NCBI GenBank assembly: GCA_001821395.1
Contig: MHLM01000001.1
Span: 96,001-160,000 of the forward strand
Origin: Candidatus Lloydbacteria bacterium RIFCSPHIGHO2_02_FULL_50_18
Lineage (GTDB): Bacteria; Patescibacteriota; Minisyncoccia; Phycocordibacterales; UBA6899
DNA length: 64,000 nucleotides
Direction: 5' to 3'
Part shown: piece by piece, positions 22,388 through 62,070 of the stretch
Position numbering within the stretch: the first letter of the stretch is position 1
Layout of the letters: each line of letters opens with the position of its first letter
Made by a program: the position numbers and the translations under genes
The notes under the pieces: model-generated
Seen by the model: the letters and a program-made list of their open reading frames with translations, nothing else
What the model was told of the DNA's origin: nothing
Database searches by the model: none

Positions 22388-24091
22388 TCATAAGGGCGTC
22401 AGACCGACACTAAAGACATGTTTCACCGTGGAGCCAGACGTCCCAATGCTATCGATAACCCCCGTTACTCCCGGTGCAACAATGAACCTGCGATAACTGG
22501 CCCTCGAGAAATCTGATGTGTTTGCACCGCGATCGTAATCTTCGGTCCACCCGCCCCCCTGCGTGAGCGGATTGGCAAACGTGCGCACGGTGGTAGTGTA
22601 CATGCTTGCAAAGACGAGCACTGTTGTGTTGGCGGTTGGAATCGTCATTGATGCGGCACGATAGGTCGTATTACTGACCACGTATTTCGTATTTGAAAAT
22701 ACAGAAATGGGATTTAAGACATCAAAGCAACCACGATATGCGGATAGCGTTACTGCGATCTTTGAGGCGGCGCTAAATCCAAATGTATAATTTGCCCCCT
22801 CAGCCGCTCCTGCGATCTTGTAATAGAGTGCCTGATTGTAGTTACCATTCCTGTGACGGCCGACAAGATTCCATCCAGCGGGTATCACCGACAATCTATC
22901 GATATTTGCGGCAGGATTATGAAGGATGTGAGCAAAAAGAATATCCCCCGCGGCGACTCCGGTTGGCTTCGTTACAACCGCTGAAGCAGATGACGCAGAA
23001 TCGTACACGGTTGGAATACCGACCGGTGCTGAGGCAACAACGCAAGTAGCTGCACCCGTCGTAAATGTTCCATCAGCTGAATAGCCCGTTCCCGTGGTGT
23101 TTATCGCATAGCCACGATAGTAGTACGTCGTTGCTGCAGTGAATCCCGTACGTGCCTGGGTAAATATGCCAAGCGTCGTTCCTCCTTCCGCGACACAATT
23201 TGTCGTAGGTGCGGGTGTTGTTCCCCAACATATTCCGCGCTCTCCGATCGAGGCCGGAATACCGAGTGACGTGACGTTTGCTCCAAGTGTCGCGGTCGTC
23301 TCGGTAATAAGGGCTGCGGTTGGAGTAGTAACCGTGGGGATCACATATTCTTCATACGTAATAGTGCATAATTTTGTGTCGCCATTGGCAAGCATAATGC
23401 TATTTCCAAGGCAATCAGCAGAAAGTGTCAGAGCGTAATTGGGGTCGATCGTTGTCAAAAAAGTGTACACACCGGGACCGAGCGTCATCGTGAACGGTGA
23501 ATAAACGATCGGAATATTCACGGTATTCTGCACGGGTGGTTCTACGGAATTATCCCACGCCAACGTCTGAAGACTATTGGGAAGGAAGTCGCCGAGGACT
23601 TTTGTACCACCATGATTCACTACCGTCTTGTTCACCGTGAGCCCAATATTGAGCGGTGCACGCCAATTCGTAAGATACGTATCCATGGCAACCGTGTGAA
23701 TTCCTAGAACCTGGTCTTCCCACGAAACGACCGTATGTATCCTCTTTTGATCGCTATTGACGGTCGAGAGCGTGACCGTTCGCGAGAAAATACCCTGCAC
23801 ATCGAATGAACCGGATAGGGCCCAAACATTAGCGAGATTGGCGAGACCATAAGTGCCGTCGGGCAAATTTACGAAATCATACTGCGCATCGCGCAGATTT
23901 CTTATTATCTCAAAAGATGCTTCGGCAAGAAAAGCGGCTCTCTCACTGTTCGCGACATGTCGCGCATTACGTGCAACGGTTGTTGTGGCACCTATTGTAG
24001 CAACAACAAAAACCATAAACACTGATAATGCGATCAGTATCTCGATCAAAGAAGATCCGCGACTATTAATATGTGATGGTACCTTTTGCAT
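22388..24091 (-). CDS. Large type IV pilin-like protein (567 aa)
   Basis: N-terminus RG|SSLIEILIALSVFMVFVV is a prepilin motif with Glu5. The long Thr/Gly/Ala-rich beta-rich C-region suggests a minor or tip pilin or an adhesin. Confidence 0.7.
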   Translation of the reverse strand: MQKVPSHINSRGSSLIEILIALSVFMVFVVATIGATTTVARNARHVANSERAAFLAEASFEIIRNLRDAQYDFVNLPDGTYGLANLANVWALSGSFDVQGIFSRTVTLSTVNSDQKRIHTVVSWEDQVLGIHTVAMDTYLTNWRAPLNIGLTVNKTVVNHGGTKVLGDFLPNSLQTLAWDNSVEPPVQNTVNIPIVYSPFTMTLGPGVYTFLTTIDPNYALTLSADCLGNSIMLANGDTKLCTITYEEYVIPTVTTPTAALITETTATLGANVTSLGIPASIGERGICWGTTPAPTTNCVAEGGTTLGIFTQARTGFTAATTYYYRGYAINTTGTGYSADGTFTTGAATCVVASAPVGIPTVYDSASSASAVVTKPTGVAAGDILFAHILHNPAANIDRLSVIPAGWNLVGRHRNGNYNQALYYKIAGAAEGANYTFGFSAASKIAVTLSAYRGCFDVLNPISVFSNTKYVVSNTTYRAASMTIPTANTTVLVFASMYTTTVRTFANPLTQGGGWTEDYDRGANTSDFSRASYRRFIVAPGVTGVIDSIGTSGSTVKHVFSVGLTPL

Positions 24092-47007: not shown

Positions 47008-47880
47008 ATGGGATATACAATCAGACAACTTTCCGACCAGGAGTTCCCTCCCCAGCTTCTCGAAATACCCGAGCCCCCGAAAGAATTATGGCTCGCCGGT
47101 GAACTCCCATCACCCGATACAGTGCTCCTTACCGTCGTCGGTGCACGCAAGCACACCTCGTACGGAAGAGAAGCATGCGAGGAAATCATTGCGGGGCTTG
47201 CGGGATACGACATCACCATTGTCTCCGGACTCGCCATTGGCATTGATGCGATCGCGCACGAGTCGGCGATACGCGCAGGACTTATGACCATCGCTGTTCC
47301 GGGATCGGGACTTGACCCTCGTGTGCTTTATCCGCGCACCAATTACCAACTTGCCGAGCGGATTCTTGAAGCAGGCGGTGCGCTGCTTTCTGAGTTTGCA
47401 CCCGATACCCCTCCTGCTCCGTGGACGTTCCCAAAGAGGAATCGCATCATGGCGGGTCTTGCCCGCGCGACACTCCTTATCGAAGCACAAGAAAGATCCG
47501 GTACGCTCATCACCGCGCGACTTGCCACGGACTATAACCGAGAGCTTCTCGTTGTGCCTGGAAGCATCTTTTCTCCGCTTTCAAAAGGAACGAATCAATT
47601 CATCGCACTCGGGGCAACGCCGGTGACCTCCGCCGCCGACGTGCTCCGAGCGCTTGGATTTAACACTGAGGATATGGCGGAAAAAGTAGAGATCGATCTT
47701 TCACAATTCCCTTCCGATGAGCGAGCAGTGCTTGAGCTCCTCACCGAGCCACTGGAGCGTGAGCGGCTCATTACGCAAATGGGGGTAAGCGCGAGCGATG
47801 CGAATGTGCTTTTGATGAGACTCGAGATCAATGGATACATATCGGATACACCGGAGGGCATTCGCAGGAACTATATATAA
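47008..47880 (+). CDS. dprA: DNA-processing protein DprA (Smf)
   Basis: Rossmann-like VVGARKHTSYGREACEEIIAGLA...VSGLAIGIDAIAHE. Classic dprA-topA synteny. Confidence 0.85.
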   Translation: MGYTIRQLSDQEFPPQLLEIPEPPKELWLAGELPSPDTVLLTVVGARKHTSYGREACEEIIAGLAGYDITIVSGLAIGIDAIAHESAIRAGLMTIAVPGSGLDPRVLYPRTNYQLAERILEAGGALLSEFAPDTPPAPWTFPKRNRIMAGLARATLLIEAQERSGTLITARLATDYNRELLVVPGSIFSPLSKGTNQFIALGATPVTSAADVLRALGFNTEDMAEKVEIDLSQFPSDERAVLELLTEPLERERLITQMGVSASDANVLLMRLEINGYISDTPEGIRRNYI

Positions 47881-48056
47881 TAGCAATGGTAATTACTGCG
47901 TAAGGAAGTCTGCGCAACGTGTGCCAACGTTGCATTTTCACTATTCACAACGCGAAGAAACATGATGATAGCGGTGCTCTTTTTGAAATTTATTTTTTAT
48001 CCACGATTTGCAAATTATTTTTTGGCATGATACTTATTGAAAGCATGTCAGTAGCA

Positions 48057-50243
48057 ATGAAAAACAAAACGCTGGTCATTGTCGAGTCACCGACAAAGAT
48101 CAAGAAGCTTGAAGCCTACCTTGGCGATGACTACATCGTCCTCGCTTCCGTTGGACATATTCGCGACCTCCCAAAATCCAATAAGGTCGCTATCGATATC
48201 GATGGCGGTTTTGTACCGCATTATGAAATTGTTCCGGGGAAGGACAAGGTGGTTCGCGAACTCAAGGAGGCGGCGAAGGTCGTCAAAGAAGTCCTCCTCG
48301 CAACCGACCCCGACCGCGAAGGCGAGGCTATCGCCTGGCACATCGTCGAAGTCCTCGGCCTAAAAAATGCAAAACGTATCGTATTTCATGAAATCACTGA
48401 ATCTGCAATACAAGAAGCGGTGAAACACCCCCGTCCAATCGATGAAAACCTCCGCCAGGCACAGGAAGCACGACGCATCCTTGATCGTCTCGTAGGATAT
48501 GACCTTTCGGGACTTATCTGGAAAAAAGTTCGCTATGGCCTCTCTGCGGGACGCGTGCAATCCCCGGCGCTCCGTATCATCATGGAGCGGGAACGAGAGA
48601 TCCGTGCGTTCATTCCGGAAACATTCTGGAGACTGACCGCGGACGTTGCGACCGCAAAAAAAGAACCATTCACGCTCACCTGTAGCGAGGAGCCGAGAGA
48701 CAAAGAACTTGTAGACAGGATCCTCAAAGAAGGAAAGATGAATGACTGGTATGTCCTCGAAGTGAAAGAAACCCAGGTTGCGCGCACGCCGAAGACTCCT
48801 TTTACTACCTCAACACTCCAGCAGTCCGCATCAACTCGACTCGGACTGTCCCCCTCGCGCACGATGCAGATCGCACAGAAACTTTATGAGGCCGGACTCA
48901 TCAGTTATATGCGTACCGATAGCACCAATCTCGCGCAAGAGGCGCAGAAAGAAATTCTCGCTATGATCGAAAAGACCTATGGCAAGGAAAAGGCGATGGC
49001 ACGTACCTACAAAACGAAGAGCAAGAATGCACAAGAAGCACATGAAGCAATTCGTCCCACGAGCGCATCAAAGAAAAAGGCGGGACTAACTCCAGAGCAG
49101 CAAAGTCTCTATGCCCTGATATGGGAGCGCACGATCGCATCGCAGATGATCGATGCCACCACATTGCGTACAAAAATAGTGGCGAATATAGAGGGAGCAA
49201 AGCAGCCAATTCCCGATTTTCATGCGAACGGATCGCGTATCATCGCAAAAGGATGGCTCGAAGCGGATCCCGATGCCGCTGGCGAAGAAGTCACTCTTCC
49301 AAAAGTTTCATCCGGAGATAAGCTCATACTAAAACAGCTCGACGCCCTCGAGAAGCAAACCGAACCGCTTCCCCGTTACACCGAGGCGGGTCTCATTAAG
49401 GAGCTCGACAAACGCGACATCGGTCGACCGTCGACCTATGCTTCCATCCTCCGGACCATCACCACGAGAGGTTACGTGAATAAAGAAGGCAAGACGCTCA
49501 TACCGACTGATACCGGGGATGTCGTCAGTTCATTCCTCGAACAACACTTTGCCAAATACATCAGTGACACATTCACTGCAGAGATAGAGCAAAAACTCGA
49601 TGATATCGCCCTCGGGAAACGAAAATATGCAAAGACGCTGAAAGAATTTTATGATCCATTCAAAAAAGATGTGAAATCGAAAGATAAAATTGAGAAGATT
49701 ACCAACCTTGGTGAGGCACCGATGGGACTGCTTTGTCCAAAGTGCGGCGGCAATATGATCATCAAGCTCGGCAAGAACGGCAAGTTCTTATCATGCGCAA
49801 AATTTCCGGATTGTGACGGATTGCGCGGTATCGACGGACAAGAGATCGAGGGCCCCCGTCTCACCGGAGAAAAATGCCCCGACTGCGAGAAGGGTGACCT
49901 CATCGAGCGCGAGGGTAAGTTCGGACGATTCATTGCTTGTGCAAACTATCCGAAATGCAAATACATCAAAAAAGATGCCAATCTTAACCCGGTCACCTCA
50001 AGCGGAGTCAAATGTAATATCTGCAACGAGGGCGACATGATCGAGCGACGTGGCAGATTCGGGATATTTTGGTCATGTTCGAACTATCCGAAATGCAAAC
50101 ATGCGATCAAGGCGAAACCGACGGGGAAATTATGCCCAATGTGCCAAGCACTCATGATGGAAGGTACGAAAACAATTCCCGAGAGATGTTCAAAAAAGGA
50201 GTGCCCCAACCATAACCCGCACAAGCTCAATAAACCCAAATAG
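48057..50243 (+). CDS. topA: DNA topoisomerase I
   Basis: Toprim MKNKTLVIVESPTKIKKLEAYLG and the active-site region, with C-terminal C4 zinc ribbons (CPKCGG...C.C). The upstream 46 codons of the long ORF are excluded. Confidence 0.9.
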   Translation: MKNKTLVIVESPTKIKKLEAYLGDDYIVLASVGHIRDLPKSNKVAIDIDGGFVPHYEIVPGKDKVVRELKEAAKVVKEVLLATDPDREGEAIAWHIVEVLGLKNAKRIVFHEITESAIQEAVKHPRPIDENLRQAQEARRILDRLVGYDLSGLIWKKVRYGLSAGRVQSPALRIIMEREREIRAFIPETFWRLTADVATAKKEPFTLTCSEEPRDKELVDRILKEGKMNDWYVLEVKETQVARTPKTPFTTSTLQQSASTRLGLSPSRTMQIAQKLYEAGLISYMRTDSTNLAQEAQKEILAMIEKTYGKEKAMARTYKTKSKNAQEAHEAIRPTSASKKKAGLTPEQQSLYALIWERTIASQMIDATTLRTKIVANIEGAKQPIPDFHANGSRIIAKGWLEADPDAAGEEVTLPKVSSGDKLILKQLDALEKQTEPLPRYTEAGLIKELDKRDIGRPSTYASILRTITTRGYVNKEGKTLIPTDTGDVVSSFLEQHFAKYISDTFTAEIEQKLDDIALGKRKYAKTLKEFYDPFKKDVKSKDKIEKITNLGEAPMGLLCPKCGGNMIIKLGKNGKFLSCAKFPDCDGLRGIDGQEIEGPRLTGEKCPDCEKGDLIEREGKFGRFIACANYPKCKYIKKDANLNPVTSSGVKCNICNEGDMIERRGRFGIFWSCSNYPKCKHAIKAKPTGKLCPMCQALMMEGTKTIPERCSKKECPNHNPHKLNKPK

Positions 50244-50543
50244 GTAGCTTGCAATCTGCATTGCAAGCGGAAAATTGTTTTTGTGAGACGGAGCATTGTT
50301 TCGCCAGCAGGCGAAACGCGAGTCGGGGTCGCGAGCGTTTTCGTTCGACGGAACGAAAACGACTTGTGACCAAAAACTATTCCCGAACGATGCAGCAAGA
50401 AGGAGTGCCCGAATCATAACCCCCACAAACTGAACAAGCTCACATAACACAAATACCACCCGCTCCAGAGAGCGGGTGATTGATTCTTGCTCAACTACCT
50501 ACTTTTTCATCTGTACACAGTTGCACAAATCTGATTTTTCGTT

Positions 50544-52016
50544 ATGATAAAAAATATGGAACATGTCAAGACACTCACCGAAATTACTGAAGTCATGCGC
50601 AGTAAGGAAAAAGAGCACATCGATCTCGTGACAAAGGCCTATAACTTTGCTGAACAAGCGCACCACGGACAGAAACGCTACTCCGGGGATCCGTACTTTA
50701 TCCACGTTGCAGCGGTAGGATATACCCTTGCGGAGATGGGCATGGATACGACCACCATCTCAGCAGGGCTCCTGCATGACGTCGTCGAGGACGCAATGGT
50801 ATCTGAAGATGATATCGAGCGAGAATTCGGAAAAGAGATCCGTTTTCTTGTCGACGGTGTCACAAAGCTCGGTAAGCTCAAATATCATGGGGTCGAAAGA
50901 CATGTCGAAAGCTTGCGCAAACTTTTCGTTTCCACCGCAAAGGACCTGCGAGTCATCATCATCAAGCTTGCCGATCGATTGCATAATGTGAGCACACTTA
51001 AATATATACCGAAGGCCAAGCAGCATCGTATCGCCATGGAGACACTCGAGATCTATGCACCGATCGCAAATCGTCTCTCCATCGGTAAGATCAAGGGCCA
51101 GCTCGAGGATTACTCCTTCCCTTTTGCTTATCCCGAAAAATACGAAGAACTTCAAGCACTGCTCAAGGAGCGAAATAAGGACAATGAAAAGCGTTTGGAA
51201 AAAATATATCGCGGAATCCAGATAGAGCTTGTAAAGAGCGGAATCGTAAATGTGCATGGTGAGTACCGCATCAAGCGCATGTACAGTCTTTATAAGAAAC
51301 TCGCGGAACATGACATGGACATCAGCAAGATCTATGACCTGTCTGCACTGCGGATCGTTGTCCCGACCCTTGCGGACTGTTATCGTGCGCTTGGTATCGT
51401 ACACAGCGTCTGGAGACCGCTTCCCGGCCGCATCAAAGACTATATTGCCTTTCCAAAACCAAACGGCTACCAATCACTGCACACAACGATATTCACCGGC
51501 GACGGCGGCATCGTTGAGGTACAATTTCGCACCGAGGAGATGGACCGCGATGCGGCGCTCGGAATTGCAGCGCACTTTGCATACAAAGAAGGAATTCCGG
51601 GCGACGTGAGTGGCAAACTTCCCAATAAGCTCGATTGGGTGAAGCAAGTTTCGCTATTACAGAAAAATATTTCCGCGTCTGGAGAATACCTTGAAAATCT
51701 TAAGGTTGATTTTTTCGGTGATCGCATATTTCTTTTCACTCCCAAGGGTGACGTTGTCGATCTTCCTCAGGACTCCAGTCCGATCGATTTTGCCTATGCC
51801 ATCCACTCGGATATCGGAGAACATATTTCCGGCGCAAAGATCAACGGAAAATTTCTCGCACTTGATACAAAATTGCACAACGGGGATATCGTCGAAGTCA
51901 TCACCAAAAAAAATGCGAAGCCGTCGATCAAATGGGTTGATTATGCGAAAACAACTTTTGCAAAGCGCAGTATTCGTTCATATCTGCAAAAAGAAGAGGA
52001 GAAACGAAAGCGTTAA
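50544..52016 (+). CDS. rel: Bifunctional (p)ppGpp synthetase/hydrolase, short Rel/SpoT form (HD-synthetase-TGS)
   Basis: HD motif HDVVED, synthetase RIKRMYSLYKK...GYQSLHTT, and TGS. Confidence 0.85.
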   Translation: MIKNMEHVKTLTEITEVMRSKEKEHIDLVTKAYNFAEQAHHGQKRYSGDPYFIHVAAVGYTLAEMGMDTTTISAGLLHDVVEDAMVSEDDIEREFGKEIRFLVDGVTKLGKLKYHGVERHVESLRKLFVSTAKDLRVIIIKLADRLHNVSTLKYIPKAKQHRIAMETLEIYAPIANRLSIGKIKGQLEDYSFPFAYPEKYEELQALLKERNKDNEKRLEKIYRGIQIELVKSGIVNVHGEYRIKRMYSLYKKLAEHDMDISKIYDLSALRIVVPTLADCYRALGIVHSVWRPLPGRIKDYIAFPKPNGYQSLHTTIFTGDGGIVEVQFRTEEMDRDAALGIAAHFAYKEGIPGDVSGKLPNKLDWVKQVSLLQKNISASGEYLENLKVDFFGDRIFLFTPKGDVVDLPQDSSPIDFAYAIHSDIGEHISGAKINGKFLALDTKLHNGDIVEVITKKNAKPSIKWVDYAKTTFAKRSIRSYLQKEEEKRKR

Positions 52017-52114
52017 GGCCTCATCCATTAATAAGTTGCTATAAAAAATGGCTGATGCACAGAGGACCGTCAACACCAATAACGATGAGGTTATTGGTGG
52101 ACGAGTCCTAAGCC

Positions 52115-53290
52115 CTAGATCGAAAAATTGCTGACCGAGTAGAGAGCGTCGTCTTCGGACTCATCGGTCTTTTTTATCTCACCTTCTGCTTCCGGTATCG
52201 CTTCTCGGTCACCTGGAGGCTCATGATGCTCATCGTCGGAAATATCGGTACTGAATCGTTGGAACGAGTCGAGGTGGTCGGGGGCGTCATCAAGAGGTAT
52301 GAGCGGGGCTTGCGGAGCCTCAAACGGCGCAAAAGAATGTCCATCACGGGGAATGACCTCGTCGTGCGATATGCGAATCGGAGTACTCTCCTCGAGTGTT
52401 TTCATTGCCTTGCTTGTGTCCGATGCGGCGGTCGAGGCTTTACGCAGCAGTGAAAGCTGTTCGGAAAAATGCACCTTATCGAGCAATGCACGCAGGTCAT
52501 CACTGGAGAAGAAATCAATGACCAACTTTCCGCCCCCTACCTGTCGACGTTCGATGGAAACGCGCGTTCCTAGGGTTTCCGCAAGCTCCTTTTCAATGAG
52601 CTCCATCTCGGGATCGCGAGGGATCTTGCTGCGTACCCGCTCTTTTGCGATGTGCCGCGCGATCTGTTCTGCCTCCCTCACGGTGAGCTTTTTGAAAAGA
52701 ATTTCTTTATAGAGCGTATTCTGTTCTTCTTTTCGATCGGTAAGCATCATCAAAGGGCGTGCATGCCCCTCAGTGATGCGCCCCTGCGCAAGCGCATCGA
52801 GGATCTCTTTCGGAAGTACGAGCAATCGCAATGTATTCGAAACATACTCACGACTCTTCCCCACTTTCTTTGCGATCTCAGTGTGCTTCAAGCTAAATTC
52901 TTGTGCAAGCCGCGCAAATGAAATAGCGCGATCAACGGGATTGAGGTCTTCGCGCTGCAAGTTCTCGATGATGGCGAGCTCGAGCTTGAGACGCGGATCG
53001 GTCACCGCCTGAATGATAGCCGGCACACGCAAGAGTCCCGCAAGCCTGGAGGCGCGCAAACGACGCTCTCCTGCGATGAGTTCGTATTCCACGACCATTC
53101 CCCCATCAGGTAGCTCAACTTCGCTTCGCGTGACGACGAGCGGCTGAAGCACCCCATACTGGCGGATAGAGTCTGCAAGGTCACGCAAATGAGCTTCGTC
53201 AAACTCTTTTCTCGGCTGATAGGGATTCGGTTTGATCTTCTCGACTTCGATCCAAAAAATGGCGTTGTTTATAAATTCAGACATGCGCAC
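52115..53290 (-). CDS. parB: ParB/Spo0J-like partition protein with long acidic C-terminal extension
   Basis: ParB N-domain GERRLRASRLAGL and HTH. Confidence 0.75.
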   Translation of the reverse strand: MRMSEFINNAIFWIEVEKIKPNPYQPRKEFDEAHLRDLADSIRQYGVLQPLVVTRSEVELPDGGMVVEYELIAGERRLRASRLAGLLRVPAIIQAVTDPRLKLELAIIENLQREDLNPVDRAISFARLAQEFSLKHTEIAKKVGKSREYVSNTLRLLVLPKEILDALAQGRITEGHARPLMMLTDRKEEQNTLYKEILFKKLTVREAEQIARHIAKERVRSKIPRDPEMELIEKELAETLGTRVSIERRQVGGGKLVIDFFSSDDLRALLDKVHFSEQLSLLRKASTAASDTSKAMKTLEESTPIRISHDEVIPRDGHSFAPFEAPQAPLIPLDDAPDHLDSFQRFSTDISDDEHHEPPGDREAIPEAEGEIKKTDESEDDALYSVSNFSI

Positions 53291-53597
53291 ATTCTAGCAT
53301 AGAACCACCCGCCGCAATGATGTGTACAAAGTGTTGATGAGTTTGATTTTTGGATGCGAGTTCGTTACACTATCCCCACAAGCTGGAGTGGCGGAATGGT
53401 AGACGCGTGAGGTGCTGGATTAGCGAAGCAGCGCTTCGCAAGCACCGCAAGGTCGGAGCCATGTCGAGGCTTTGTGAGACAGGCGAGACGGGGTCGCAAG
53501 AACTTATGAGCGAAGCGAATTAGTTACTTGAGACCGACGTAGTCGTGCGCAGTGTGGATGTCGTGAGAATTGTTCAAAAAAATAAATAGTTCGTATT

Positions 53598-53678
53598 GCC
53601 GGAGTGGCGGAATGGTAGACGCGCACGACTCAAAATCGTGTTTCGAAAGAAGTGAGGGTTCAAGTCCCTCCTCCGGCA
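53598..53678 (+). tRNA. tRNA-Leu (anticodon CAA)
   Basis: Acceptor GCCGGAG/CUCCGGC, anticodon loop CU-CAA-AA, a 13-nt variable arm (type II), and T-arm GAGGG-UUCAAGU-CCCUC. It is followed by a hairpin plus T-run at 53694-53713. Confidence 0.8.
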
Positions 53679-53730
53679 CATTTTGAAAAATCAGCCCATG
53701 TGGGCGATTTTTCTTATGTGCCGGAGAGAA

Positions 53731-54067
53731 AGTGCTCTGCGGCACTTTCGTGAGGGACTTGAAAAGCTTTGCGATGTTTATAAAGAATTCTTATTCTGAA
53801 TAAACCGCAAGGGTGTACTGACCGAGTAGCGGTCAAGTCCCCTCTTTCTTTGACAAAAAACGTAGTAACTCGTGACCAAGTCTGATACCCTTGCGTGCTT
53901 TCGTGAGGGACTTGAAAGGGATTTCGATATTTTCAAGGAGCCATGCTCCGAGAAAATCGAAATCCACCTGGCGAAGTAATCGCCAAGTCCCTCGTTAATT
54001 GCATCAATAAGACCTAGTGATTCGTGACCAAGTCCGAGAGTACTGCTCGGCTTCCGTGAGGTGACCC
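53731..54067. repeat. Degenerate tandem repeats containing tRNA-Leu T-arm-like fragments
   Basis: Repeated ctttcgtgagggacttgaaa(ag/gg) at 53745 and 53895, with cttccgtgaggtgaccc at 54048. T-arm-like caagtccc cores occur at 53830, 53878, 53985 and 54030. Confidence 0.6.
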
Positions 54068-56380: not shown

Positions 56381-57313
56381 CTATTCCTCGCCCATATATT
56401 CGGGCGGGAGAACAAAGACGTGATAATGCGAACGCTCAATGATGAACAGAATTTTATGCTTTTGTTGATCGGCGATAAGCCGGGCCTCAAGCCATGCGCG
56501 TTTCTGTTGACCAATATCCTTCAGACCGAGATCAAGCGAGGACCCACTTGTATGGGTGGAGCACAGAAATGCATAGCGACAGTCTGCGGGCGATAGCCCT
56601 CGCCTCACCTCTTTTGCCTGATCCTCAAAGGAGCGAATCATCGAAGTAACGCGAAGCGGAACGAAATGCTCACCGGCCTGCTCTTCCAGCGCAAAATGCT
56701 GATGCATATCATGAGCAAGTCCCGCGATATAATCGCGCACCCATGGACGAGTGAACCTCCTGTCGGGAGGGATCTCTTTTGACACCACTTCAACGTAAGG
56801 AGACGATATCTCCACAAGCTGACCTCCCGCTTCACGTCGGATATCCGCGAGATCGCGATATCCTCGAAGCCGAAATGTGCGCGCGAGACAAACTTCATGC
56901 CCATGATGCGCCGTGGATCCGCGCAGTGCGGACCAAAAGGCCCTGAGTCCGTTTTCCTCGCGTGCGGTCTGCTCTCGAAACACGAAATCCACTACAGCTC
57001 CAGTGCGATTCGTCTCAGTCACATGGCGGATGCATTCCGAAAATGCATCACGTATCGCCTCTTGCTTCGAGGAAAGCAATAGCTTCGCACCAAGCGGCAC
57101 TCGAGATGGATCGGCAACCGGTGGCAGCTTATTCTGTCTCACTTTGTGCTTTCCGGACCGTTGGGGCTTCTTTACCTTCTTGCACAGCTTTTGTTTATGA
57201 TTCTTCCGGCACTCCGCGCGAACGGACGTGTACTCCGTAGCCGGTGCGGCAAATGTGCTTCCAAAAAGGAGCACCATGAACAAAGCGGCTATCGCTCGTG
57301 CAATATGCTTCAT
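56381..57313 (-). CDS. Secreted LAS/M15-like peptidase (putative D-Ala-D-Ala carboxypeptidase-like)
   Basis: Signal peptide. STHTSGSSLD resembles SxHxxGxAxD and ERSHYH resembles the ExxH zinc motif. Confidence 0.4.
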   Translation of the reverse strand: MKHIARAIAALFMVLLFGSTFAAPATEYTSVRAECRKNHKQKLCKKVKKPQRSGKHKVRQNKLPPVADPSRVPLGAKLLLSSKQEAIRDAFSECIRHVTETNRTGAVVDFVFREQTAREENGLRAFWSALRGSTAHHGHEVCLARTFRLRGYRDLADIRREAGGQLVEISSPYVEVVSKEIPPDRRFTRPWVRDYIAGLAHDMHQHFALEEQAGEHFVPLRVTSMIRSFEDQAKEVRRGLSPADCRYAFLCSTHTSGSSLDLGLKDIGQQKRAWLEARLIADQQKHKILFIIERSHYHVFVLPPEYMGEE

Positions 57314-57378: not shown

Positions 57379-57398
57379 GAAATCAGCGGGCCCACGAG
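57379..57398 (-). repeat. Partial copy of the tRNA-Trp 3' end
   Basis: gcgggcccacgagga(a/g)tcga matches 57554-57573 (19/20). Confidence 0.65.
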
Positions 57399-57554
57399 GA
57401 ATCGATCGCAGTACCGTTCGTTGCGGTCACAGATAATTTCCTCGCCGTCGCACGGAAATTTCCGCGACCCCGACTCGCAACCTCGCTTGCTAGCTCGGTA
57501 TCAGCTCCGTCTCCCGCAAAGCGAAAAACTGCATTCGCAGTTATTTCGTCTTTG

Positions 57555-57625
57555 CGGGCCCACGAGGAGTCGAACCTCGGACTCTTCTTTTGGAGAGAAG
57601 AATTTTACCGCTAAACTATAGGCCC
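57555..57625 (-). tRNA. tRNA-Trp (anticodon CCA)
   Basis: Acceptor GGGCCUA/UGGGCCC, anticodon loop CU-CCA-AA, and T-arm CGAGG-UUCGACU-CCUCG. Confidence 0.8.
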
Positions 57626-59663: not shown

Positions 59664-61778
59664 CTAAATAGCACCACTCTTACATTGCTTACATAAGTCA
59701 CGTACATTCTCGGGAACATAATCACACGACGGTGCGAGTTTGAAATTCTCGCAGACATTTGCGGGCATTCCGCCACCCGACGCGCCAGCAGGAGGCATCA
59801 TACCGGTCGGAATTCCTGCGGGAAGCTCTCCGCTCTTTGGAACTCCCTCGGGACGATAACCTGCTTCGGGGATGCCCTCCTTAGGAATACCCGCTGGCAT
59901 TCCGGCAGGTCTAAAACTCTGCATGCACTCAGCGATAAACGGCTGTACGTCTTCCGGTCCTCGTATTGTAGAAACATCACCGATCTTCGACTTGATACAG
60001 TCACGCATTTCCGCTGGCGCCTGCTCGAGCATCTTATCCATTATTGCAGTCGCATTAGCCGCACATGATTGAAATGCATTCCCCATGTCGGGAGAAAGCT
60101 CGATGCCGTCTCCATTCATGATCTTTTCTACGACATCTTTTCCAAGTTTCTCTTCGATACATGCGCGCATTTCCGGCGGCATCTTCTCAAGACCTTCGCG
60201 CGCCTGTTGCATTCCGCTCTCACGCATGGACTCAAAACACTTTCTCACGATATCTCCGCTTTGCGCATCCATTTCCCCACCCGAAAGCATCTTATCGAGC
60301 CCGCTCGACCCAAGCCCTTTTTCGATACAGGCTTTTGCCTCGGGTGTTGCGATATCCATCGCTGCACTTATCTTTTCTTTTATCTTAGGCATCATATCTG
60401 CCATGCAACCCTTGATCAACTGACCCATATTTTGTGTGGGCATGAACGTACCTTCTGATATCTTTGCCAGCGCTTCTTCTCCTAATTTTTCCTTTAGGCA
60501 TACACGCGCTTCTTCAGGAAGCTGCGGCAAACCGGCACGCAATTGACCCATTCCATCTTTGATCTCTTTCAATTGCTCGGCTGGAATGAGGCCATACTTT
60601 TCGGCAAACTTAAAACATTCTTCCTGGTGCGACGTATCATTACAATACGCCTCACAAGTTTCACGAGAACGGCACCCACCGGGACCCTCTCCGCCGGTCT
60701 TCCTCGCCATCTCGGCATCTTCCTTTGAAATGAGCCCTGCTTTCTCGGCGAAGTTCACACATTCATCGGCATGATCACTTTCGGAACAATATGCTTCACA
60801 AAGCGCTTTTGTTGTGCACTTTCCGGGAGTTTCACCCGACTTCATAAATGGGAGTACTCTGCGCGACTCTGCGACATCTTTTGGATCAATGAACCCTGCT
60901 TTCTCGGCAAACGTGAGACATTCATCAGCATGGGTCGTATCAGCGCAATATGATTCACATGATTTTTTGTCTGTGCAGCCACCCGGAAGCGTCGCGCCTT
61001 CTGCAAGTACTCTGGATATCCGTTTCGCGTCCTGCAATACATCTTTCGGTATCAGGTTGTGTCGTTCTGCAAATAAGAGGCATTCATCCAAATGCGCGAC
61101 TCCATTGCAGTACGCCTCGCATGTTTTTTGGTCCTTACATGCACCGGGACCGTCTCCTCGGAGAACATCGGCAAACTCCCTCGCGCGAGCAGCCTCTTCC
61201 TTTGAGATCATGCCATTTTCTTCCGCATAATCCGTACACGCTACGATGTGCGCCTTGTCATCACAGTACGTCTTGCAGGACGACTGGTCCTTACAATTTC
61301 CGAGCTTAGTGATGGGAAATTTATTCTTCTCAGTTTCCGATCGCTGCAGATGCCCGACCGCACCAAACACACTATCGGTCACGACACCGTCATTGGTGAA
61401 CGTATACACGCGCCCCCACAAATTCAACCTCATATCATCGGGACGCTGCGTCTGATACGAAGTGGAATATATCCCTTTTGTACCCTCGTTGAAACCACTG
61501 ACGCTCCAGTTCATGTCGGCGGCAGTGTATCGAATCGTATATATTTTTCCTGCCATGAGCGTTCCCATGGGGTCGCTCGAACCCTTCCAGCCGGAATCAT
61601 CAAAATTGGCTGTATCAAAATTCACGTAAAATGTTTTTCCCGACTTGATGTACGACTGCCATGGCCCGAGTTCGGGTGCCGCAAACGCAACGATCACCGA
61701 GCTCATGAATATTCCCGCACAAACGATCAGCACTGCAATGTGTCCTGCGAGCACATTCTTCATGTGAAAATTTTTCAT
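59664..61778 (-). CDS. Secreted Cys/His/Met-rich tandem-repeat protein (704 aa)
   Basis: Signal peptide MKNFHMKNVLAGHIAVLIVCAGIF. It has at least six ~45-aa modules G-x-C-x6-C-x3-C-x5-H-x3-C-x2-FAEK-x-G-(L/I)-I, followed by four P-E-x3-C-I-x2-K-L-G modules and a Met/Pro/Gly-rich tail. Confidence 0.7.
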   Translation of the reverse strand: MKNFHMKNVLAGHIAVLIVCAGIFMSSVIVAFAAPELGPWQSYIKSGKTFYVNFDTANFDDSGWKGSSDPMGTLMAGKIYTIRYTAADMNWSVSGFNEGTKGIYSTSYQTQRPDDMRLNLWGRVYTFTNDGVVTDSVFGAVGHLQRSETEKNKFPITKLGNCKDQSSCKTYCDDKAHIVACTDYAEENGMISKEEAARAREFADVLRGDGPGACKDQKTCEAYCNGVAHLDECLLFAERHNLIPKDVLQDAKRISRVLAEGATLPGGCTDKKSCESYCADTTHADECLTFAEKAGFIDPKDVAESRRVLPFMKSGETPGKCTTKALCEAYCSESDHADECVNFAEKAGLISKEDAEMARKTGGEGPGGCRSRETCEAYCNDTSHQEECFKFAEKYGLIPAEQLKEIKDGMGQLRAGLPQLPEEARVCLKEKLGEEALAKISEGTFMPTQNMGQLIKGCMADMMPKIKEKISAAMDIATPEAKACIEKGLGSSGLDKMLSGGEMDAQSGDIVRKCFESMRESGMQQAREGLEKMPPEMRACIEEKLGKDVVEKIMNGDGIELSPDMGNAFQSCAANATAIMDKMLEQAPAEMRDCIKSKIGDVSTIRGPEDVQPFIAECMQSFRPAGMPAGIPKEGIPEAGYRPEGVPKSGELPAGIPTGMMPPAGASGGGMPANVCENFKLAPSCDYVPENVRDLCKQCKSGAI

Positions 61779-61782
61779 ATCG

Positions 61783-62070
61783 CTAGAAAGGATTCTGATA
61801 AGTGTCGGTATACGGATTGACCGTTTTTTCGAACGGATTCGTATCAGGCATCTTTTCGACTGGATTGGATGCACCAGTTTTTTGATAAATATCTCCACCA
61901 AAAGATTCGGCGGGTACCGCCTCTGCCGGTGTGGCATTTGTATCACTTCCTGATAATGTGTTGTCGGTCCCCTTTTGAGAAGTACCGAAATAAAACCAAA
62001 ACATAAACCCTAAAATGACGGCGAACACGAGCGCGGCAAGCGCAAGTAGTACATTTTTTTTCATGATCAA
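61783..62070 (-). CDS. Small secreted hypothetical protein (95 aa)
   Basis: Signal peptide. Its stop lies 4 nt upstream of the start of the large gene. Confidence 0.5.
   Translation of the reverse strand: MIMKKNVLLALAALVFAVILGFMFWFYFGTSQKGTDNTLSGSDTNATPAEAVPAESFGGDIYQKTGASNPVEKMPDTNPFEKTVNPYTDTYQNPF

Follow-up and report, generated by a model that had tools for sequence, protein, structure and literature searches.

Among the described systems closest to the locus analysed here are integrative elements and introns. The e14 element integrates at the 3′ end of a conserved protein gene, icd, and tRNA and tmRNA genes are reportedly the classical integration targets, as Williams is said to have set out in 2002. 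Group I introns have a 5′ junction that usually follows a U. Self-splicing introns of this group are frequent in the tRNA genes of Patescibacteria (PMC13011429). Full-text searches of the literature yielded no account of the element described below; what they returned for Patescibacteria tRNAs was limited to canonical group I introns of the anticodon loop.

We analysed a 64-kb stretch of DNA (the window), in which an earlier note had pointed out a diverged duplicate of the topA 3′ end around a hairpin-rich insert. This insert belongs to an abundant family of small insertion elements of Patescibacteria, structured and of RNA type, which apparently has not been described before. The locus comprises the following features:

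48057-50243, forward strand: topA, complete gene (728 aa), whose own tail is tail copy 1
50166-50177, forward strand: topA junction region ACGAAAACAATT, 11/12 complementary to the guide; the duplicated segment begins here
50169-50243, forward strand: tail copy 1, KTIPERCSKKECPNHNPHKLNKPK and stop, the translated topA end
50247-50268, forward strand: hairpin H, GCTTGCAAT-CTGC-ATTGCAAGC, arms 50247-50255 and 50260-50268
50273-50284, forward strand: guide AATTGTTTTTGT, antisense to the start of both topA tail copies
50285-50371, forward strand: conserved core, topA copy, made of GAG-A-CGGAGC, P2, GCGAG-T-CGGGGTCGC and P3
50298-50317, forward strand: P2 hairpin of this core, a self-complementary match
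50327-50371, forward strand: long P3 hairpin of this core, closed by GGUCGC/GUGACC, arms 50336-50346 and 50351-50361
50373-50447, forward strand: tail copy 2, KTIPERCSKKECPNHNPHKLNKLT and stop, beginning immediately 3′ of GUGACC
50457-50478, forward strand: terminator-like GC hairpin, 3′ of tail copy 2

The TopA protein of the window is 100% identical to that of Ca. Lloydbacteria RIFCSPHIGHO2_01_FULL_49_22, and the junction lies at a fixed point in topA, with 24 codons left before the stop. The duplication reported earlier is real: a direct repeat (50169-50242 versus 50373-50446) extends over 74 nt with 77% identity and a spacing of 204 nt. Comparison of the two tails revealed 22 identical residues (KTIPERCSKKECPNHNPHKLNK) encoded with 13 synonymous and 0 non-synonymous codon differences, while the final two codons are unlike (PK in copy 1, LT in copy 2), with a stop in both. 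The three hairpins announced between the copies were recovered at 50247-50268, 50298-50317 and 50336-50361, and the GC hairpin beyond the second copy is present at 50457-50478 rather than at 50459-50482; it is the sole canonical terminator-like site of the topA unit. The supposed 145-bp triple hairpin is better described as hairpin H followed by the guide and then by a two-domain conserved core. The hairpin-rich insert between the tails measures 128 nt, and the insert region folds far better than shuffled sequences (z = -6.75). No sigma-70-like promoter was detected in 49900-50700, using a consensus that may not apply to this phylum. Tail copy 2 lies in no other gene and is thus not the end of a different real one, and the proposal of a small structured element inserted at the topA 3′ end, flanked by two versions of the tail, is supported. 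The guide at 50273-50284, antisense to both tail starts, had been missed.

The family core reads …AG-N-CGGAGC, hairpin, GCGAG-N′-CGGGGUCGC, long hairpin, GUGACC. The search for further copies that had been suggested yielded at least ~130 of them in Patescibacteria DNA, well beyond the source genome (10 + 104 + ~19 with the covariance model R1), the metagenome loci being among the matches listed for a strict pattern of one core subfamily, in a biased dataset. In the DNA sampled here, the family was seen only in Patescibacteria. The elements are non-coding and ~75-200 nt long, with a core of ~75-95 nt, and CUGC-type-loop hairpins occupy the position of hairpin H in other copies too. The covariation evidence for an RNA fold on the strand of the host gene is strong: 83.4% of the cells are paired compared with 67.2% in shuffles (0/500), double-change cells number 455 versus 148, and the covariation score is 0.427 versus 0.07-0.19 in slid controls. 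One G.U pair of the core is conserved in 79/80, and the strand of the fold is therefore fixed. The core also contains tandem G.A motifs and a long-range N/N′ pair, which is Watson-Crick in 60/78 for 24.7 expected.

At least five family copies are present in the window, with five in one 12-kb locus. Outside topA, they are the following:

57386-57553, reverse strand: second family copy, directly 3′ of tRNA-Trp (57554-57625)
53382-53550, forward strand: third family copy, in mirror arrangement upstream of tRNA-Leu(CAA), core at 53445-53535
53680-54029, forward strand: two tandem units of a diverged subfamily, 3′ of tRNA-Leu(CAA)

In the tRNA-Trp copy, the core ends with GACC at 57425, beyond which 37 nt of the tRNA 3′ part are repeated (57386-57422, 76%). 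The mirror copy harbors a 26-nt repeat of the tRNA 5′ part (53382-53407, 96%), and its guide (53541-53550) is antisense to tRNA-Leu(CAA) positions 53621-53630. The tandem units end with GTGACC at 53877 and 54029, each then continuing with AAGTC… (the T-loop repeat), and their guides (53716-53726, 53752-53763 and 53905-53916) match the tRNA-Leu(CAA) 3′ end perfectly in antisense.

On its host-facing side, each copy of the family carries a variable guide, antisense to the host gene over a stretch that spans the insertion junction. Exact antisense matches of 8 nt or more with the 3′ end of the neighbouring tRNA were found in 51/65 tRNA-linked copies, against 1/65 in the sense control, and some guide/target matches within the window are perfect over 10-12 nt. 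The topA guides follow the codon spelling of tail copy 1 (GTTTTTGT with ACAAAAAC; GGTCTTCGT with ACGAAGACC, in relatives). The host sequence from the junction onward is repeated immediately 3′ of GUGACC; in tRNA-linked copies, exact repeats of 16-29 nt, running from T-loop position 57 to the tRNA 3′ end, come directly after GACC. Repeat length varies from ~5 to >70 nt, in step with how far the junction lies from the gene end.

Regarding the targets, the core adjoins tRNA genes of 18 amino-acid specificities and tmRNA genes (L081, L123), and it is found at topA in eight Paceibacteria lineages, one of them with a truncated remnant. In tRNAs the element targets the T-loop, the anticodon loop or the 3′ end; tmRNA genes and the site in topA complete the list. 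Comparison of the topA 3′ region in relatives, another suggestion of the earlier note, revealed occupied sites (L200, L206, L207, L212, L005 and L110), empty sites (L201-L204, L208, L209, L213-L215, L002-L004 and L006-L008) and a remnant (L205), mixed among relatives with TopA identities of 78-93%. Two core lineages were found at this same site, with an identity of 0.95 within a lineage and 0.67-0.76 between them. The topA core of L206 shares 0.90 identity with the tRNA-Trp copy of the window, and cores at different tRNA genes are 90-94% identical. Tandem arrays were observed in L100 (x3), L091, L177 and at the tRNA-Leu of the window.

No recombinase, integrase, transposase or reverse transcriptase was found in the 64-kb window, and a pooled Pfam scan of 140 ORFs flanking the copies detected neither these four enzymes nor any enriched one. 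Viral contigs gave two matches, both failing the covariance model, and no autonomous or cargo-bearing version. The existence of autonomous versions was rejected, as the viral matches are spurious and neither the flanking ORFs nor the window hold a mobility gene. Rfam 15 gave no match for the element, only tRNAs, one group I intron and sub-threshold noise.

We consider it fairly probable that the family is a guide-directed, non-autonomous insertion element, which preserves its essential target by duplicating the gene end. Mobility and guide-directed targeting are here deduced from comparisons of sequences rather than from an insertion event caught in near-identical genomes. The element would spread by guide-directed insertion, nucleic-acid pairing selecting the site, and catalysis could come from a host enzyme or from the element RNA itself. 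It could persist in essential genes because insertion would be coupled to duplication or replacement of the gene end. At topA, the upstream repeat gives the last 24 codons and the stop, and the downstream repeat retains the original-type terminator.

The synonymous-only differences over the 22 shared codons of the two topA tails lie far beyond chance, since one random change in tail copy 2 has P = 0.19 of being synonymous, and ~0.01% of the simulations with five random substitutions kept the peptide. Tail copy 2 has no in-frame start codon and is preceded by an in-frame TGA. Its independent translation was rejected for want of this start codon; stop read-through or ribosome hopping into it was rejected because of the upstream TGA and of a frame that is inconsistent among loci (the window, with a spacing of 204 nt, and L005, with 201 nt, keep the frame; L200, 196 nt, L110, 200 nt, and L206, 178 nt, do not). 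Downstream topA copies evolve like functional tails, with synonymous/non-synonymous differences of 16/0, 12/1 and 12/4; the first value opposes tail copy 2 of the window to that of L200, two genomes whose topA bodies show a saturated synonymous divergence of 49%. The decay expected of a simple displaced remnant is not seen; this calls for insertion that is recent or repeated, or else for selection that still acts on copy 2.

As to which tail is native, the co-divergence of copy 1 with the topA body appears to favour copy 1, while the terminator context appears to favour copy 2. Synonymous sites are saturated between all genomes compared (0.47-0.63), even at 93% TopA identity, so that 22-codon tails are not assignable to a native or element origin; a nearest-neighbour comparison of the tails was abandoned for this reason. 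Deviations from CPNHNPHK concern 5/8 occupied and 3/13 empty topA sites, a non-significant difference, and are also found in tail copy 2 of L207 and L212. Relaxed selection on tail copy 1 in occupied genomes was rejected on these two grounds.

The functional behavior of the downstream copies is also what would be expected if the element were an intron-like RNA, a possibility that we find doubtful. The segment from the junction in copy 1 to GUGACC would be removed from the transcript, by self-catalysis or by a host RNA enzyme, joining the gene body to copy 2, with the guide acting like the internal guide sequence of group I introns. Unspliced RNA would still work, the removed segment opening with a full copy of the downstream exon, and mobility would occur by reverse splicing. 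The guide is indeed complementary to the uninterrupted gene across the junction, and the RNA-type fold lies on the sense strand within the topA transcription unit, upstream of its only canonical terminator. In-silico removal, joining the 5′ part to repeat copy 2, gives a valid tRNA in 33/63 cases, and in the tRNA-Ser(UGA) of L180 the core sits inside the T-loop with no intact copy within 420 nt. However, the upstream tRNA is intact in 63/63 cases, where splicing is unneeded, and two rounds of in-silico element removal left L180 as the single interrupted tRNA among ~130 copies; without its insert, this tRNA has a non-canonical T-loop (UAGGAAU) and may be a pseudogene. The group I model RF00028 gave no match at E<=10 in 49800-50800, although in the same run it detected a genuine group I intron in L180 (7812-8057). 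A core of ~75-95 nt is far below the size of any self-splicing intron known to us, and the 5′ junction of the element copies follows a C. Moreover, tail copy 2 is lost in L205 and altered in L207 (H>L and K>T), and many downstream tRNA repeats are decayed.

With the same low probability, the core could be a new, very small catalytic or enzyme-recruiting RNA, ensuring guide-sited integration into, and excision from, RNA or DNA and invading essential genes (tRNA, tmRNA and topA). It would in effect be a bacterial intron or retro-mobile element of a new class, in which a fail-safe copy of the downstream exon protects the host and processed and unprocessed transcripts are both functional. Such an RNA would explain the guide resembling an internal guide sequence, the purifying selection on a topA copy 2 that looks untranslated, and the tRNA-Ser of L180.

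A miniature integrative element of the e14/21-icd and tRNA-island type, dependent on a recombinase encoded elsewhere, is unlikely. A small circle would integrate and bring a replacement 3′ end (copy 1), copy 2 being the displaced native end, and the conserved fold would be a binding region for the recombinase or an accessory protein, possibly as folded single-stranded DNA. The targets are the classical ones (T-loop, anticodon loop and 3′ end of tRNAs, tmRNA, and the 3′ end of a conserved protein gene), the terminator after copy 2 resembles the canonical terminators of empty-site relatives, the copies differ mostly by synonymous changes as in icd, and tandem arrays form at one site. Yet no integrase lies near any of the ~130 copies, nor was a cargo-bearing version found, and one recombinase would have to accept at least 18 different tRNA T-arms plus topA. 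The repeat and guide of each copy match its own host gene, unlike a fixed attP, while the conserved G.U pair and the tandem G.A motifs point to RNA. Between the window and L200, tail copy 1 has diverged at the same pace as the gene body (50% versus 49%), which fits a vertically inherited native tail.

More improbable still is a non-mobile, cis-acting RNA domain in the 3′ trailer or 3′ UTR of tRNA, tmRNA and topA transcripts, whose pairing with the upstream RNA would control processing, stability or termination, the downstream repeat being a competing partner. The sense-strand fold, the co-transcribed position, a guide able to pair alternatively with either tail copy, and the lack of any mobility enzyme among the flanking ORFs would agree with it. 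But only ~12 nt of the 75-nt topA repeat can pair with the guide, whereas the whole repeat keeps its reading frame and stop. Patchiness among close relatives, with remnants, also argues against such a domain, as do the tandem arrays, the repeats running into non-functional flanks (L169, L088 and L091) and the mirror-image 5′ arrangement. Finally, a one-off event in one genome (tandem duplication, illegitimate join with foreign DNA or chance repeat), which the locus alone would resemble as a partial duplication with an insert, has a negligible probability: six other topA loci, one truncated remnant and >100 tRNA/tmRNA loci share this architecture and core, and the existence of such a family refutes it.

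If the guide-directed insertion that we favour is correct, the reduced genomes of Patescibacteria would hold many copies of an unannotated RNA element that uses base pairing to target the most conserved cellular genes, which nonetheless stay functional. For a selfish element, this would be a novel mode of life within essential genes, as well as a natural, programmable, nucleic-acid-guided insertion with no linked protein gene. The element would also be a source of artefacts in the annotation of tRNAs and gene ends in this phylum; if its RNA proved catalytic, few known splicing or integrating RNAs would be as small. For testing site choice, >100 natural guide/target pairs are at hand.

Among known systems, MITEs and REPIN-type repeats are, like the element, small, abundant, non-coding, hairpin-rich and enzyme-less. 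The idea of a MITE with an unusually long target duplication does not hold, as the element has no terminal inverted repeats and no fixed-length short target duplication, the repeat ranging from 5 to >70 nt, and it is strictly tied to gene 3′ parts and carries a target-specific guide. Diversity-generating retroelements also place a diverged copy of a gene 3′ end shortly downstream. A template/variable repeat pair was rejected at topA, where the mismatches affect all bases instead of being confined to adenine, are synonymous rather than diversifying, and have no reverse transcriptase nearby in the window. As in the IS110 bridge RNA, the IS200/IS605 omega RNA with TnpB and the CRISPR-associated transposons, the end of the element bears a structured non-coding RNA, part of which matches the insertion target, and tRNA genes serve as homing sites in guide-RNA mobile elements too. 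In contrast to these, the element consists of RNA only, with no adjacent recombinase, TnpB or cas gene and no similarity to their RNAs in Rfam, and it duplicates the target segment.

The group I introns found in bacterial tRNA genes, in Patescibacteria among others (PMC13011429), share with the element their tRNA residence, the phylum, a sense-strand structured RNA and an internal guide complementary to the exon across the junction. The element differs by a core of 75-95 nt that is not that of RF00028, by a junction in the T-loop or 3′ end instead of the anticodon loop, and by a host gene that is normally uninterrupted, a full copy of the downstream exon coming first, with the tRNA-Ser of L180 as the exception. 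The e14/21 elements in icd of E. coli and the tRNA/tmRNA islands resemble it in the kinds of target, in a gene completed by a second 3′ end, in mainly synonymous differences between versions and in the tandem occupation of one site; in both, a direct repeat of the target 3′ segment flanks the insert and the upstream copy completes the gene. Compared with them, the element is ~100 times smaller, lacks integrase and cargo, and displays an RNA-type fold and a target-specific antisense guide, and a single family spans many tRNA genes plus topA, with a repeat that always matches the local gene.

The duplicated topA end in the window exemplifies a structured, non-autonomous element with a guide, which is widespread in Patescibacteria, sits at the ends of tRNA, tmRNA and topA genes and leaves them complete. 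Its features at topA are as follows:

48057-50243, + strand: topA, topoisomerase I, 728 aa
50273-50284: guide of the element (AATTGTTTTTGT), antisense to nt 1-12 of either tail copy
50457-50478: GC hairpin 3' of copy 2

The encoded TopA is 100% identical to that of Candidatus Lloydbacteria RIFCSPHIGHO2_01_FULL_49_22. As the earlier note had described, the 3' end of the gene is repeated downstream in diverged form: the last 74 nt (50169-50242) recur at 50373-50446 with 77% identity and a spacing of 204 nt. Codon-by-codon comparison of the two copies revealed 22 identical residues (KTIPERCSKKECPNHNPHKLNK) with 13 differently spelled codons, among them a serine that is TCA in one copy and AGC in the other; the peptides part at the two final residues alone, and a stop codon closes each copy. 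The three hairpins reported between the copies and the GC hairpin beyond them were all recovered, and the predicted fold of the repeat/insert region is far stronger than that of shuffled controls (z = -6.75). The guide had been overlooked in that note.

The proposed comparison with relatives, for which we fetched Patescibacteria loci and contigs (L-handles), recovered this layout in part. The topA site is occupied in the window, L200 (93% TopA identity), L206 (81%), L207 (80%), L212 (77%), L005 and L110, and empty in L201/L202, L203/L204, L208, L209, L213-L215, L002-L004 and L006-L008. In L005 (64% TopA identity), the stop, hairpins and second tail copy follow one another as in the window, and the stems have changed in sequence and kept their pairing. 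One further locus (81% TopA identity) carries a remnant:

L205, 4685-4750: truncated element 3' of topA, with hairpin, guide and first half of P2

Here copy 1 is kept and copy 2 is gone; where the missing part would stand, a small convergent ORF has its terminator. Losing copy 2 and most of the core is thus evidently harmless. The junction falls at the same codons in every occupied site, Thr-Lys-Thr of MEGTKTIPERC. The guide tracks the codon spelling of copy 1; that of L200 fits copy 1 and not copy 2. The gene order dprA - topA - relA/spoT homologue - parB (convergent; window 47008-53290) is common to most Lloydbacteria/Paceibacteria relatives, several of which have a small opposite-strand ORF between topA and relA.

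In the window tail stretch, a random mutation is synonymous with a probability of 0.19, and in simulation the peptide survived five random substitutions in about 0.01% of trials. The exact 22-residue peptide is encoded by six sequences (both copies of the window and of L200, L201, and copy 1 of L205) that differ pairwise by 9-16 codons, all synonymous, with 16 synonymous and 0 non-synonymous codons between copy 2 of the window and copy 2 of L200. Within genomes, synonymous/non-synonymous counts between copies were 12/1 (L206), 12/4 (L110), 6/4 (L005) and 0/3 (L207). Copy 2 of L207 looks like a recent re-copy, now decaying; the other ratios are similar to those between functional tails of different species. 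These sequence comparisons make a solid case that selection on the TopA peptide has shaped the downstream copies, which would either have been functional tails until recently (through repeated or recent insertion, or lineage exchange) or still be under selection. Between the topA bodies of the window and L200, 49% of conserved codons already show synonymous differences, and the synonymous difference of 0.47-0.63 in all genome pairs amounts to saturation. Tails can therefore not be assigned as 'native' or 'imported', and the search for a native copy by nearest-neighbour tail comparison was dropped. Relaxed selection on copy 1 was also considered and dropped. Read-through into copy 2 cannot be a general route, since only 2/5 loci have their copies in frame and copy 2 comes after an in-frame TGA. 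A conserved serine of the tail switches repeatedly between TCN and AGY among lineages and between copies within one genome (window, 50190-50192 versus 50394-50396; L200; L110; L206); such a switch normally takes two substitutions.

Other copies of the hairpin element, which the earlier note had suggested seeking, extend well past the topA locus. The core motif occurs two further times in the window, beside tRNA-Trp and tRNA-Leu, and adjoins tRNAs on other Paceibacteria contigs. A covariance model, R1, built from six copies retrieved more behind tRNA-Lys, tRNA-Leu and tRNA-Trp genes. Scanning metagenome contigs by exact pattern gave at least 119 stretches, from which R1 was used to discard chance matches in GC-rich coding DNA. 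At least about 130 genuine copies remained across the window, relatives and metagenome contigs, and targets among the matches listed comprise tRNA genes of at least 18 amino-acid specificities, tmRNA genes (L081, L123) and topA. No Rfam family matches the element and full-text literature searches found nothing comparable, the nearest paper reporting that Patescibacteria tRNAs carry canonical group I introns in their anticodon loop (PMC13011429).

A consensus and fold were derived from an 80-sequence alignment. The core reads …AG-N-CGGAGC – P2 hairpin – C-GCGAG-N'-CGGGGUCGC – long P3 hairpin – GUGACC, P3 often carrying an apical GAGCGACGGCGAG. The fold is well supported: 83.4% of cells are paired versus 67.2% in shuffles (0/500 reach 83.4%), both sides of a pair are changed in 455 cells versus 148, and the covariation score is 0.427 versus 0.07-0.19 with slid partners. 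The long-range N/N' pair is Watson-Crick in 60/78 sequences (expected 24.7), and an apical pair alternates between C-G and U-A. In the closing helix GGUCGC/GUGACC, a G.U pair is retained in 79/80 copies; as it would be a C.A mismatch on the opposite strand, this fits an RNA read on the strand of the host gene. In the window, the sole canonical terminator-like site lies 3' of copy 2 and no promoter-like site was detected between topA and the element with a sigma-70-like consensus, which may not be the phylum's; the element is thus predicted to belong to the topA transcription unit.

At tRNA genes, the segment just 5' of the core matches the 3' part of the adjacent tRNA exactly in antisense over 8 nt or more in 51 of 65 tRNA-linked copies, compared with 1/65 in the sense control; over the same 65 copies, the longest antisense match averages 10.1 nt versus 5.1 nt in shuffles. 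Many copies have a guide in two halves around a small hairpin, one for the acceptor 3' strand together with a few adjoining bases and one for the T-loop and T-stem 3' strand. Directly 3' of GUGACC, the remainder of the tRNA from T-loop position 57 onward recurs, often exactly for 16-29 nt and at times running on into the flank. The junction lies at the acceptor end in other copies, and the tRNA-Trp copy has a 37-nt repeat extending back toward the anticodon arm. In L084, L114, L081, L099, L139 and L174, an extra segment of 9-21 nt splits the repeat 2-4 bases past GACC; in three of these the segment has a common motif, GCGTACTCGC, which is a small hairpin.

Two core lineages share the topA site. 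Identity is 0.95 between the cores of the window and L200, drops to 0.67-0.76 when these are compared with L206, L207, L005 and L110, and reaches 0.90 between the L206 core and that of the window tRNA-Trp copy. Cores at different tRNA genes can be 90-94% identical, and tandem arrays occur. One such array and the tRNA-Leu(CAA) locus of the window comprise:

L100, 9568-9934, - strand: tandem array of three identical units, period 134 nt, behind tRNA-Arg(UCU)
Window, 53382-53550: mirror-image copy upstream of tRNA-Leu(CAA)
Window, 53680-54029: diverged subfamily, two units in tandem, period ~152 nt, downstream of tRNA-Leu(CAA)

The site pattern, the two lineages, the similar cores at different tRNAs and the arrays would be signatures of a moving element. 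At tRNA-Leu(CAA), perfect antisense guides of 12, 12 and 11 nt were found. R1 gives the tandem units no significant score, so the family is broader than R1. In the mirror copy, 26 nt of the tRNA 5' part are repeated first, then come the core and a perfect guide of 10 nt, and last the intact tRNA; this guide is antisense to the D/anticodon-stem junction ~70 nt downstream. As in other copies, the guide is on the side of the complete gene, with the partial repeat beyond the core. The mirror copy suggests that the element can also occupy the 5' parts of genes.

The likeliest mechanism, which we consider rather probable, would be guide-directed insertion that duplicates the gene end. The most interesting rival, an intron-like RNA whose spare exon copy acts as a fail-safe, is unlikely. 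The upstream tRNA is intact on its own in 63/63 tRNA-linked copies; in 33 of them, fusing the 5' part with the downstream repeat would give a valid tRNA as well. Wider in silico removal of the element gave a single exception, first flagged by the Rfam tRNA model, so the family is not an obligate intron. The exception and a group I intron on its contig are:

L180, 3341-3498, - strand: tRNA-Ser(UGA) with an insert of ~77-80 nt (short core form) inside the T-loop
L180, 7812-8057: canonical group I intron (RF00028, 51 bits), on this contig with five element copies

No intact copy of this tRNA-Ser(UGA) lies within 420 nt; it is missed by ARAGORN and spanned by the Rfam tRNA model. Its T-loop is non-canonical once the insert is removed, so it may be a pseudogene; it may also represent a 'naked' state of the element or a tRNA requiring insert removal. 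For the family, RNA-level excision could conceivably occur. The RF00028 model detects the L180 intron, a positive control, and gives no match to the element, which is therefore no group I intron.

The 30 largest window ORFs are housekeeping genes, including DnaB, RecR, RmuC, pilus/T2SS, DprA-TopA-RelA/SpoT-ParB, MiaA and ClpB, with no integrase, transposase, reverse transcriptase or nuclease among them. Three large ORFs, all on the - strand, have no Pfam match at E<=1e-5 (59664-61946, 760 aa; 22388-24091, 567 aa; 56381-57313, 310 aa). Pfam families recur at most three times among 140 ORFs flanking metagenome copies, and the 25 most frequent families listed include no recombinase. Viral contigs gave two matches, both of which fail the covariance model.

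Judged by their defining features, the element stands apart from integrase-type islands, MITEs, group I introns, DGRs and known guide-RNA transposons. It behaves like integrating elements in bringing or creating a spare gene end.
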